A stretch of DNA of 64,000 nucleotides from a virus (Duplodnaviria; Heunggongvirae; Uroviricota; Caudoviricetes), in the IMG/VR virus record IMGVR_UViG_2718218360_000008. One strand, given 5' to 3'. Positions 21,601 through 30,600 of the stretch are shown here, piece by piece. Made by a program: the position numbers. Every line of letters begins with the position of its first letter. Positions within the stretch are counted from its first letter, which is position 1.

Positions 21601-24600
21601 TATGTGGATGGAAGAAAAAATTCTTCCTGCGCTGGAGGCAGTTCCCGGGCTCAGTGCATTACTGCTGAAGATGAATCTTCAGGGGTATGACTACCGCCGG
21701 GATGATGAGTTTATGATGTGGGGATCGGCAGATCTCCTGTGGAAAATTACCTACGAGATGTGAGGACGATATGGCAACACCAAATCCCCTTGAGCCGGTA
21801 AAAGGTGCCGGTACCACTCTGTGGGTTTACAACGGCAAGGGTGATGCTTATGCAAACCCGTTGTCAGACGATGACTGGCAGCGACTGGCTAAGGTGAAGG
21901 ATCTGACGCCGGGCGAGATGACGGCAGAACCCTACGATGATAACTACCTGGATGATGAAGACGCGGACTGGACCGCGACCGGGCAGGGGCAGAAGTCTGC
22001 AGGAGATACCAGTTTTACGCTGGCCTGGAAACCGGGAGAAGAAGGTCAGAAAGGGCTTATAGGCTGGTTTGAAAGCGGGGATGTGCGGGCCTATAAAATC
22101 CGTTTCCCAAATGGCACGGTGGATGTGTTCCGTGGCTGGGTCAGCAGTATCGGTAAGGCCGTGACGGCGAAAGAAGTGATCACCCGCACGGTGAAAGTCA
22201 CTAACGTGGGCAAACCTTCCGTGGCGGAAGAACGCAGCGAAATTACGCCGGCCACTGCAATTAAGGTGACACCGACATCCGGTACGGTGGCAAAAGGGAA
22301 AACAACCACCCTGACGGTTTCTTTTGAGCCGGAAAGTGCAACCGACAAGACGTTCAGAGCGGTTTCCGCCGATCCGTCGAAAGCCACCATTAGTGTGAAA
22401 GATATGACAATTACGGTAAACGGCGTGGCGACAGGTAAGGTGCAGATCCCTGTGGTGAGCGGAAATGGTCAGTTCGCCGCAGTGGCTGAAGTCACCGTTA
22501 CTGAAGCGGGCGCTGCAGGGTAAACGGAGGTAATACATGTTTCTGAAAACAGAACAATTTGAATATAACGGTGTGTCCGTCACGCTTTCCGAATTGTCTG
22601 CGCTGCAGCGGTTTGATTATATGAAGTTTGTTTCAGACGCAGAACAACAGAAGACAACGAAGCATGATGTCGTGCGCATTAACCAGCGATATCTGGAAAC
22701 GGCATCCCTGCTTGTGGCGATGTCGCTATGGCATTCCCATTCCCTCAAAGGCACTCTGGCCTCTCCGGAGACAGAGATGCAGCAGATCCGCCGTGAAGTG
22801 ATGCTGGGATGGCCTGCTGATGCACTGAATCAGGCAACGAACCGGGTGCTTTATCTTTCAGGTATGCTGGATAACCGGCACGATGCCGATCCTGAACCAA
22901 CCGGGAAAACAGAAGCGACTGAGCCGGTAACATCAAAAAAGCATTCGAAGGCGAGCTGAACTTTGTCCTGAAACTGGCGCGTGAGATGGGGAGAGCCGAC
23001 TGGCGCGCCATGCTTGCCGGGATGACATCCACCGAATATGCCGACTGGCGACGTTTTTACTGCACGCATTATTTTCAGGATACCCAGCTGGATATGCATT
23101 TTTCCGGGCTGATGTACGCCGTACTCAGCCTGTTTTTTGCGATCCGGATATGCATCCGGCGGATTTCAGCCTGTTCGCTCCGGAGGCAGAGGAAGGACAG
23201 GCGGAGACGCCGGACGAAAATGATGTACTGATGCAGAAGGCGGCGGGCCTCGCCGGTGGAGTCCGTTTCGGGGAGGAGGGAAGGAGGTTGTGACAGTTAT
23301 TGATGGTATCAGAGGACATTTCAGGAGGTGACCACGATGGCAGGTAATTTTGCCGATCTGACAGCCGTGCTGACACTGGATTCTGCCCGTTTTTCTGAAG
23401 AGGCAGCGCGGGTAAAAAAAGAGCTGGGTGAAACCAGTGCGCTTGCTGATTTGATGTCCGGGAAAGTCAGTCAGTCTTTCAGAAAACAGGCTGATGCTGC
23501 TGAGCAGAGTCTGAGCCGACAGGCGCTGGCTGCACAAAAAGCCGGGATATCAGTCGGACAGTATAAGGCTGCCATGCGCACACTGCCCGCACAGTTCACG
23601 GATATTGTCACTCAGCTTGCCGGTGGTCAGAATCCCTTCCTTATCATGCTGCAGCAGGGGGGGCAGATCAGCGATTCATTCGGTGGACCGCTCAGCCTGC
23701 TTACCCTGCTGAAGGAGGAACTTCTCGGGATCAGGGATGCCTCTGAATCATCAGAGGAGTCGCTGTCAGATACGGCAAATGCACTGGCTGAAAATGCCCG
23801 GAATGCCGGTGAGCTGGGACGATTTATGTCGGTGGCCCGTGTGGCGGCAGGTGGCGGGGTTGCCGTACTGGCCGCGCTTGCTGCCGCCGCCTGGCAGGCA
23901 GAGCAGGCTGATCGGGCCTTATTGCGTTCACTGATCCTGACCGGAGGGGCGGCTGCCACCACAACGGCAGAATTGTGGAAAATGGCCGGGGTGATCAGCG
24001 ATGAAGCCGGTGGTGGTATCAGACAGGCGGCAGAAAATCTGGCCCGTCTGGCAGAAAGCGGGAAATATACCGCCGGGCAGCTACGGATCATGGGGGAAAC
24101 CTCTCAGAGATGGCTGCAGACGGTGGGGGACGATGCCGGGAAGGTGGAAAAAGCCTTTGAAGGGATTGCAGCAGATCCGGTGAAGGCGCTGGCCTCCCTG
24201 AATCAGCAGTATAACTTCCTGAGCGTTTCCCAGTTACGCCATATTGATGAGCTTGAGCGCACGAAAGGTAAACAGGCTGCGGTGACGGAGGCGATGTCCC
24301 TGTTTGCGGATGTCATGAATGCACGTCTGGAGCAACTTGATAAAGCGGCCACGCCGGTGGAAAAAATCTGGGACGATGTTAAAACCTGGACTTCTGACGC
24401 ATGGGCATGGATAGGTGATCATACACTGGGGGCACTCAGTCTGATCACTGACGTGGTGGCCGGAACCGTTGAACAAGTGAAGCTGCTGCTTGTGCAGGGG
24501 GATCTGGCGCTGGCTGAATTTATTCAGTCAGCCTGGGAAACGACAAAGAATGTGCCCGGCGTTGGTGCGTTGTTTGGTGAACTGGCAGAAGAGAACCGCG

Positions 24601-27600: not shown

Positions 27601-30600
27601 AACTGCTTCACCATCTGCCTGAACAACTGAGTAAACGGGAGAGGTATTCTGAAAAATGGCAACGACGAACGCATTCTGTCTGGCGTCACCGCCACTGGCA
27701 CGCATCTGCCTTCACGGGGATTTGCAACGATTTGGCCGCCGCCTCAGCCTGTACGTGAACACGGCAGCGGAAGCCATCCGTGCCCTGTCGCTGCAGATGC
27801 CGGGATTCCGCCGTCAGATGAACGAAGGCTGGTACCAGATACGTATTCGCGGTGAGGACACGGCACCGGAGGCGGTGTACGCCCGTCTTCACGAACCTCT
27901 GGGTGAGGGGCGGTCATCCATATTGTGCCGCGACTGGCCGGGGCCGGAAAGGGTGGACTGCAGATTGTGCTGGGGGCGGCGGCCATCGTGGGGTCGTTCT
28001 TCACTGCCGGGGCATCAATGGCGTTATGGGGTTCAGCCCTGGCAGCCGGTGGTTTTTCTGCCACCACGATGCTGTTTTCACTTGGAGCCAGCATGATTCT
28101 GGGTGGTGTGGCTCAGATGCTGGCCCCGAAGGCTAAAGTACCGGAGTACAAAAGCACGGATAACGGTAAACAGAACACGTATTTTTCGTCACTGGATAAC
28201 ATGATTGCCCAGGGGAACCCGATGCCGGTGCCTTATGGTGAAATGCTGGTTGGTTCACGACGGATATCCCAGGACATCAGCACCCGTGATGAGGGCGGAG
28301 ACGGGAAAGTGGTGGTTATCGGGCGGGATGAAAATAAAAAAATCCCGCAGAGTTAGCGGAGCTGCGGGAGAGAACGATGAAGATTAACGTTATGGAGTTA
28401 TTTTTCAGGCATCAAAAAAGTAATGCAGCGTCATTATTGCGGCTACAGGCAATTGCCGGAAATGTGAAGAGTTTCAGAAATTTTATTCCGTCATGACACA
28501 GGCACCCTCCGGGGTGCCTGTTGTTTTCTGGCATAAACAGATTCAGACATCAGACAGGAGAGGGGGACAGAGTGGGTAAAGGGGGCGGCAAGGGGCACAC
28601 GCCGGTAGAGGCAAAGGACAATCTTAAGTCCACGCAGATGATGAGCGTGATTGATGCGATTGGTGAAGGGCCGATTGAAGGTCCGGTGAAGGGGCTGCAG
28701 AGTATCCTGGTGAACAAAACCCCACTGACGGACACGGACGGCAATCCCGTGATACACGGTGTGACCGCGGTCTGGCGCGCCGGGGAGCAGGAGCAGACAC
28801 CACCGGAAGGCTTTGAGTCCTCCGGAGCTGAAACCGGACTGGGCGTGGAAGTGACGAAGGCAAAGCCGGTAACGCGCACCATTACATCCGCGAACATTGA
28901 CCGCCTGCGGGTCACCTTCGGGGTGCAGTCACTGTTGGAGACCACCTCAAAGGGCGACCGTAATCCCTCTTCTGTCCGACTGCTGATTCAGTTGCAGCGT
29001 AACGGTAACTGGGTGACGGAAAAGGATGTCACCATTAACGGCAAGACCACCTCACAGTACCTGGCGTCGGTGATTCTGGAGAATCTGCCTCCCCGCCCCT
29101 TTAACATCCGGATGGTCAGGGAGACGGCGGACAGCACACGGACCAGCTGCAGAATAAGACGCTCTGGTCGTCATACACCGAAATCATCGATGTGAACAGT
29201 GCTACCCGAACACGGCGATTGTGGGGCTGCAGGTGGATGCGGAGCAGTTTGGCGGTCAGCAGATGACGGTGAACTACCATATCCGCGGTCGCATCATCCA
29301 GGTACCGTCAAACTATGACCCGGAAAAACGCAGTACAGCGGCATCTGGGACGGCAGCCTGAAACCGGCATACAGCAACAACCCGGCCTGGTGCCTGTGGG
29401 ACATGCTGACTCACCCGCGCTACGGCATGGGAAAACGCCTGGGGGCGGCGGATGTGGACAAGTGGGCGCTGTATGCCATTGCGCAGTACTGCGACCAGAT
29501 GGTCCCTGATGGTTTCGGGGGCACAGAGCCGCGGATGACCTTTAATGCGTACCTGTCACAACAGCGTAAGGCGTGGGACGTTCTCAGTGATTTCTGCTCG
29601 GCGATGCGCTGTATGCCGGTATGGAACGGCCAGACGCTGACGTTCGTTCAGGACAGTCCGTCGGATGTGGTGTGGCCGTACACCAACAGTGATGTGGTGG
29701 TGGATGATAACGGCGTGGGGTTTCGCTACAGCTTCAGCGCCCTGAAGGACCGCCACACGGCGGTGGAGGTGAATTACACCGACCCGCAGAACGGCTGGCA
29801 GACCTCCACGGAACTGGTGGAAGACCCGGAAGCCATACTGCGCTACGGGCGCAACCTGCTGAAGATGGATGCGTTCGGCTGTACCAGTCGCGGTCAGGCC
29901 CACCGTGCCGGGCTGTGGGTGATAAAGACCGGACTGCTGGAAACGCAGACGGTGGATTTCACGCTCGGGTCACAGGGGCTGCGTCACACACCCGGTGACA
30001 TTATTGAAATCTGTGATAACGACTATGCCGGGACCATGACCGGCGGACGTATCCTGTCCATCGATGCCGCCAGCCGCACCCTGACACTGGACCGTGAGGT
30101 GACCCTGCCGGAGACCGGTGCCGCCACGGTGAACCTGATTAACGGCAGCGGTAAGCCGGTGAGCGTGGCCATCACTGCACACCCCGCGCCGGACCGGATA
30201 CAGGTCAGCACCCTGCCGGATGGCGTGGAGACATACGGTGTGTGGGGGCTCTCCCTGCCGTCACTGCGTCGTCGCCTGTTCCGCTGTGTCTCCATCCGGG
30301 AAAACACGGACGGCACCTTTGCCATCACGGCAGTGCAGCACGTACCGGAAAAAGAAGCCATCGTGGATAACGGGGCGCACTTTGACGGCGACCAGAGCGG
30401 CACCCTGAACAGCGTCATCCCTCCGGCAGTGCAGCACCTGACGGTGGAGGTGAGTGCAGCTGACAGCCAGTATCTGGCGCAGGCGAAATGGGACACGCCG
30501 CGGGTGGTGAAGGGCGTGCGCTTCAGTCTGCGCCTGACCAGTGGAAGCGGTCAGGACAGCCGTCTGGTGACCACCGCCATCACTGCGGATACAGAGCATC

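Follow-up and report, generated by a model that had tools for sequence, protein, structure and literature searches.

The frameshifts that interrupt the late genes of a lambdoid prophage remnant, here called B, are very probably residual, localised errors of assembly or consensus in a repeated prophage and not bacterial mutations, as judged from sequence comparison. The remnant lies in a stretch of 64,000 nucleotides of Caudoviricetes DNA (IMG/VR record IMGVR_UViG_2718218360_000008), the whole of which was analysed and is referred to below as the window. B carries single-base insertions and deletions (indels) that are private to the window, come almost without substitutions and are confined to one part of the element. 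At face value, these indels would turn the genes for lysozyme, Rz, Nu1, terminase, T, H, I and J into pseudogenes and the element into a decayed one.

Comparison of the window with itself and with annotated Escherichia coli (E. coli) genomes revealed three lambdoid prophage segments. Gene content was read from a frame map, obtained by tblastn of strain 143 proteins against the window.

1..12071, + strand: A, tail module copy 1, with V', G/T, H, M, L, K, I, J, lom and stf (tblastn frame map)
12072..34436, + strand: B, prophage remnant with tail module copy 2 (comparison with the prfC prophage and frame map)
40271-64000: C, ompW-integrated prophage, from int to terL

The order of genes in B is truncated lysozyme, Rz, Nu1, terL, portal, ClpP-capsid, tail genes, J, lom and stf. 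The early region is absent; the genes from int to Q are missing and nothing is present upstream of nucleotide 15 of the lysozyme gene. The closest intact prophage is the prfC prophage of O111:H8 7-58 72A (99.0% identity, 42 gaps over 22.4 kb). The two tail modules (copy 1, 1-12072; copy 2, 22388-34437) are 97.2% identical in pairwise alignment, self-comparison gives the same value for 23497-34437, and the tail module finds matches at up to 16 places per genome.

Single-base deletions in the second tail module

A first-pass annotation of the window had described at least six 1-bp deletions in copy 2, given positions for six, assigned them to T, H, I and J, and remarked that some lie in G-runs and others do not. 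All six were seen when copy 2 was aligned to copy 1. The deletion given as 29206 is located at 29195, 11 nt away. The gene assignments agree with the frame map. The sites are indeed of mixed type, with G-runs at 27907 and 28325, a T-run at 23133 and no run at 24842 and 29333. The list below includes two further sites.

23133..23139, + strand: 1-bp deletion, T7 to T6, within the T-specific part of G-T (previously given as 23140)
24842, + strand: 1-bp deletion, GCTCTG to GC-CTG, no run, splits the tape-measure gene H (previously 24840)
27008..27015, + strand: 1-bp deletion, T4 to T3, in the L-K spacer, coding unaffected (further site)
27907..27911, + strand: 1-bp deletion, G5 to G4, splits the tail assembly gene I (previously 27905)
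28325..28328, + strand: 1-bp deletion, G4 to G3, 3' end of I (further site)
29137..29333, + strand: three 1-bp deletions in J, at 29137 (CC to C), 29195 (AAA to AA) and 29333 (CACG to CA-G)

The deletion at 23133, for which the T7 state was taken from references outside the window, shifts the frame of T in the frame map. H is found in two pieces, 23337-24857 in frame 3 and 24833-25978 in frame 2. In J a stop arises at 29195, and because the three deletions sum to -3 the original frame returns downstream of 29333. Clustering of deletions over T, H, I and J is thus present, but it is not specific to these genes, since the same prophage is hit in lysozyme, Rz, Nu1 and terminase and at 20438.

Programmed -1 frameshifting between G and T, known from lambda-like phages, was considered for the deletion at 23133. 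The site is in the G-T region, and the Prokaryotic Genome Annotation Pipeline (PGAP) routinely marks the reference T as 'incomplete'. A candidate slippery heptamer, A AAA AAG, is present at ~22934-22941, at the end of G. The deleted base is ~190 nt downstream of this heptamer, in a T7 run inside T, and the explanation was rejected. The lambda-type slippery motif GGGAAAG was no commoner than expected by chance.

Private indels in B and their distribution

A difference was called private when every comparison sequence disagreed with the window at that point. The comparison set comprised 4-8 sequences per segment, drawn from five genomes, two further loci and the paralogues within the window itself. 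In B, 26 clusters amounting to 30 events of private single-base indels were found, all within 12216-29333. Those outside the second tail module, together with the private indels of A and C, are as follows.

12216..13812, + strand: densest block, insertions as well as deletions among its 19 single-base events; lysozyme, Rz and Nu1 affected
15234..15237, + strand: private 1-bp deletion, T4 to T3, splits the terminase large subunit gene (terL)
16254..16257, + strand: private 1-bp deletion, C4 to C3, near the 3' end of terL
20438..20442, + strand: private 1-bp deletion, A5 to A4, end of a DUF2190 head gene
8822..8823, + strand: private 1-bp deletion in J of copy 1 (A)
9272, + strand: private 1-bp deletion in J of copy 1 (A)
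63120..63121, + strand: private 1-bp deletion, GG to G, splits the terminase large subunit gene of C

The two deletions in A split J of copy 1 into frames 1, 3 and 2 in the frame map; copy 1 is thus not an intact reference copy. The deletion at 63120 is the sole private indel in C and falls within the 3.4 kb that C shares with B (B 12085-15432 and C 60648-64000, lysis and terminase region, 97.9% identity). All 33 private indels are therefore in A, in B or in the repeated 3.4 kb of C. About two-thirds of the private events occur in runs of 2-7; sites outside runs include 24842, 29333, 12216, 12381, 12386 and 12900. The insertions mostly lengthen C or G runs, and the deletions are of mixed type. 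Only +/-1 events were seen inside B, with no larger deletion and no insertion sequence (IS).

The indels are almost unaccompanied by substitutions. Private differences in B consist of 30 indel events against 2 substitutions, and both substitutions belong to one adjacent swap, GA to AG, at 13008-9, where the references have GA or GT. The swap looks more like a transposition of base calls than two mutations. In E. coli the ratio of indels to substitutions is about one-tenth. In mutation accumulation lines of Vibrio, indels amounted to about one-fifth of base substitutions (PMC5854121). The binomial probability of at least 30 indels among 32 differences is 1.6e-21 at an indel-to-substitution ratio of 1:5, and 1.2e-7 even at 1:1. 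The protein sequences beside the shifts are similarly well preserved. Measured against the intact proteins of strain 143, amino-acid identity is 100% for Nu1 at either side of its shift, 97.7-100% for terL, 99.2-99.4% for H and 99.3-100% for I. M, L, K, G, V, U and Z are 100% amino-acid-identical to their strain 143 counterparts. Exact-protein look-ups returned no record of the H fragment, the terL fragment or DUF6645, and the exonuclease proved very widely distributed.

The private indels are also unevenly distributed. Their density per kb is 10.5 in 12085-13900, 0.35 in 13901-22387, 1.15 in 22388-29340 and 0 in 29341-60647. In the 1.7 kb adjoining the border of A and B the error density is ~1%, and the best identity of 12085-13900 to any complete E. 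coli genome is only 96.9%. The DNA that is unique within the window (34438-60647, 26 kb, comprising the island between B and C and the unique part of C) has no private indel. Over 23.7 kb, 28 mismatches and 2 gaps separate C from its best relative. The end of B and the DNA following it contain a stretch free of errors.

29368..40298, + strand: error-free stretch with the 3' part of J, lom, stf, an NleG-like gene, a split DUF4765 gene and IS remnants

These 10.9 kb match O157:H7 TX 265-1 (9966-20896 of the extracted locus) at 100% identity, free of gaps and mismatches.

Occurrence of the deletions elsewhere was assessed in a collection of 5,426 complete E. coli genomes. The deletion at 24842 was present at none of 2,955 homologous places, and the best matches to 24790-24900 keep the extra base. 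The same was seen at 27907 (0 of 5,441 places; best matches to 27860-27960 keep the extra base) and at 63120 in C (0 of 745 places; best matches to 63065-63175 keep the extra base). The deletions in J at 29137, 29195 and 29333 were found at none of 13,041 homologous places, none of which showed at least 99% identity to 29090-29380; this 291-nt piece is identical to many genomes apart from the three gaps. In general, the sequence around the tested deletions (100-290 nt) is otherwise identical to many genomes. An independent short-read contig (AASJWI010000073.1, 1-2968) is 100% identical to 29333-32297 and has the undeleted CACG at 29333.

The same contig aligns to 29330-32297 of the window and starts within 3 nt of the last deletion in B. 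The end of the error-laden part of B thus falls close to a breakpoint of short-read assemblies of related strains, a hint that the DNA upstream of ~29330 is multi-copy in related genomes.

Consensus error, decay and misassembly

The first-pass annotation had preferred consensus error to natural decay as the source of the deletions. This preference is supported by the present results, the indels being private, unaccompanied by substitutions and localised, and the gene fragments near-identical to intact homologues. It had also spoken of a collapsed repeat, which is a poor fit to pure +/-1 indels; sequence of low quality, or sequence left unpolished, is the better description. If diverged copies had been collapsed, substitutions would be mixed in; B has only the two private ones, and a collapse is unlikely. 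A high error rate throughout the window, of the type seen with unpolished long reads, was rejected in view of the few gaps in C and the perfect identity of 29368-40298.

The most probable course of events is as follows. B is the late part of a lambdoid prophage with modules that occur again and again in the genomes of Shiga-toxin E. coli (STEC). The base calls from 12.2 to 29.3 kb appear to rest on data that were poor, or ambiguous in placement, in this multi-copy region; depth may have been low, long reads may have been left unpolished, or short reads may have lacked a unique place. Length errors of a single base, for the most part in short runs, would then have broken lysozyme, Rz, Nu1, terL, T, H, I and J. 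The worst stretch is the one beside the unsupported junction of A and B, and the junction itself may be a contig-end join or a chimera. The existence of the indels, their privacy, their lack of substitutions and their localisation are direct observations; from these we infer the cause, data quality in a repeat, and any sequencing technology behind it.

Residual errors of long-read assemblies are mostly homopolymer indels that cause frameshifts and survive short-read polishing in repeats (PMC8812927, Wick & Holt 2022; Polypolish). The window resembles repeat errors of long-read or hybrid assemblies in its single-base length errors, many of them in homopolymers, in its frameshifted open reading frames and in its clean unique DNA. 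It differs in that a third of the events are outside runs, and in that the block at 12.2-13.8 kb has an error rate of ~1% with both insertions and deletions. Such a rate is above that of a typical polished consensus and nearer to that of a low-depth contig end or a single-pass read.

Several observations weigh against consensus error. A and the late region of C are also repeated, yet they have only 2 and 1 private indels, so that repeat status alone fails to explain why B is the worst. With about a third of the events outside homopolymers and with insertions and deletions mixed at 12.2-13.8 kb, no one platform signature gives a clean fit. At 23133, one other genome, PNUSAE008512, matches the T6 state exactly among 3,757 places, as is to be expected of a long run. 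Frameshift-bearing defective prophages are frequent in O157, and finished genomes of related STEC have prophage genes annotated as frameshifted.

The last two points also speak for genuine pseudogenisation, with real slippage frameshifts in neutral late genes of a non-inducible remnant. B begins within lysozyme and lacks the genes from int to Q. As a truncated remnant without early genes it would be free to decay, and relaxed selection is plausible. Most of the events are deletions, and the share in short runs is as in slippage mutation. Decay of this kind nevertheless appears improbable. By the ratio of PMC5854121, ~150 substitutions would be expected beside ~30 indels, and 2 are seen. The fragments of terL, H and I have kept their amino-acid identity (97.7-100%) to intact proteins of other STEC. 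Inherited lesions should be common to related strains, and the tested deletions of B at 24842, 27907, 29137, 29195 and 29333 are absent from the homologous copies. Decay would also have to crowd 19 events into the 1.6 kb beside a unique junction and put none in the last 5 kb of B, and to leave nothing inside B other than +/-1 events.

The pool of defective lambdoid prophages of enterohaemorrhagic E. coli (EHEC), namely the Sp prophages of Sakai and the CP-933 prophages of EDL933, is the natural comparison. The window is like these prophages in its lambda-like modules (G-T, H, M, L, K, I, J, lom, stf) with NleG-type effector cargo, and in its tandem array at ompW with truncated remnants. In finished genomes, lesions are expected to be common to related strains, and neutral decay to be accompanied by substitutions, unlike the private, indel-only lesions of the window, which sit in DNA that otherwise equals intact alleles.

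The indels could also be real and reflect a recent burst of +/-1 changes in a silent remnant, ~30 in number, restricted to this locus and with almost no substitutions. We consider this very unlikely. If true, it would amount to an indel-specific process of mutation or inactivation of a new kind, acting on one 17-kb stretch. A biological process restricted to this prophage, either localised hypermutation or exposure to a mutagen, is likewise very unlikely. Its sole support is the observed pattern of indels that lack substitutions and keep to a 17-kb span. A mechanism limited to 17 kb of one prophage that leaves out the final 5 kb and affects run and non-run sites alike is not known. Mutagens that cause frameshifts, or loss of mismatch repair, would act genome-wide, and the 26 kb nearby have no private indel.

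Misassembly at the border of A and B is a further explanation.

12071..12072, no strand: junction of A and B, end of the tail-fibre region fused to nucleotide 15 of the lysozyme gene

The join is between non-homologous DNA, with at most 4-5 nt of microhomology nearby when the sequence is read directly. Both flanking alignments to the comparison locus (L001) abut at 12071/12072. In one piece the junction was not found in the complete E. coli genomes, and an exact search of the GTDB species representatives gave no match. Either an illegitimate deletion between tandem prophages or a join made in assembly could have produced it. The peak of error density directly beside it suggests that it may be a contig-end join. 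In the wider form of this explanation, B or its first 17 kb would not belong at this place, and a poorly supported contig or chimeric read would have been joined to the end of A, a single misassembly that would account for the junction and the errors alike. We regard this as possible but doubtful. The absence of the junction from other genomes, its lack of homology and the adjacent errors favour it. The right side of B, on the other hand, is continuous with a real O157:H7 locus and identical to it from 29368, and the order of the tail of B, the effector island, the ompW fragment and C is found in O157:H7 YB14-1. Joins of non-homologous ends are rare with overlap assemblers, and an illegitimate deletion between tandem prophages would yield the same junction.

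The frameshifts in B imply no new biology; they are mainly a matter of data quality and not a biological feature. As an artefact they would distort counts of pseudogenes, calls of prophage intactness and inducibility, and typing of STEC by single-nucleotide polymorphisms and indels. The same block casts doubt on the junction of A and B, and hence on the reported order of the tandem prophages.

Effector island and ompW prophage

No tRNA genes were found in the window. The DNA between B and C is an island of effector genes and IS remnants.

34437-40270: effector and IS island, with an NleG-like DUF1076 gene, a split DUF4765 gene and an ompW fragment

In O157:H7 of the EDL933/Sakai type, a prophage with nleA, nleH and nleF is located upstream of the ompW prophage, and a source of this type does not fit the window. 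In TX 265-1 a Mu-like prophage interrupts J precisely at 29368, and yciE/yciF/yciG come after the island where the window has the ompW fragment and prophage C. The window thus probably derives from a strain related to O157:H7 in which the prophages are ordered differently. The effector-like DUF4765 gene (35231-38618, - strand) is split into parts of 846 and 290 aa. The annotation of YB14-1 likewise marks it as frameshifted, and that of TX 265-1 calls two genes. The poly-T tracts (T8/T9) at 36106 and 36923 differ in length from those of YB14-1. The split may be a real frameshift that these strains share or a variation in run length.

C is only 99.3% identical to FDAARGOS_293, a further point against an EDL933/Sakai-type source. 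Beside the ompW fragment and int of C, at 40394-40404, an 11-bp direct duplication, CTCTGCAAAAC, was seen. It is present in SCPM-O-B-7615 and absent from YB14-1 and FDAARGOS_293, and probably represents variation of the att site. Relative to the otherwise 99.9%-identical prophage of SCPM-O-B-7615, C has a 2-bp insertion (GA) at 59816-59817. This insertion is common to three other references and is thus natural variation.

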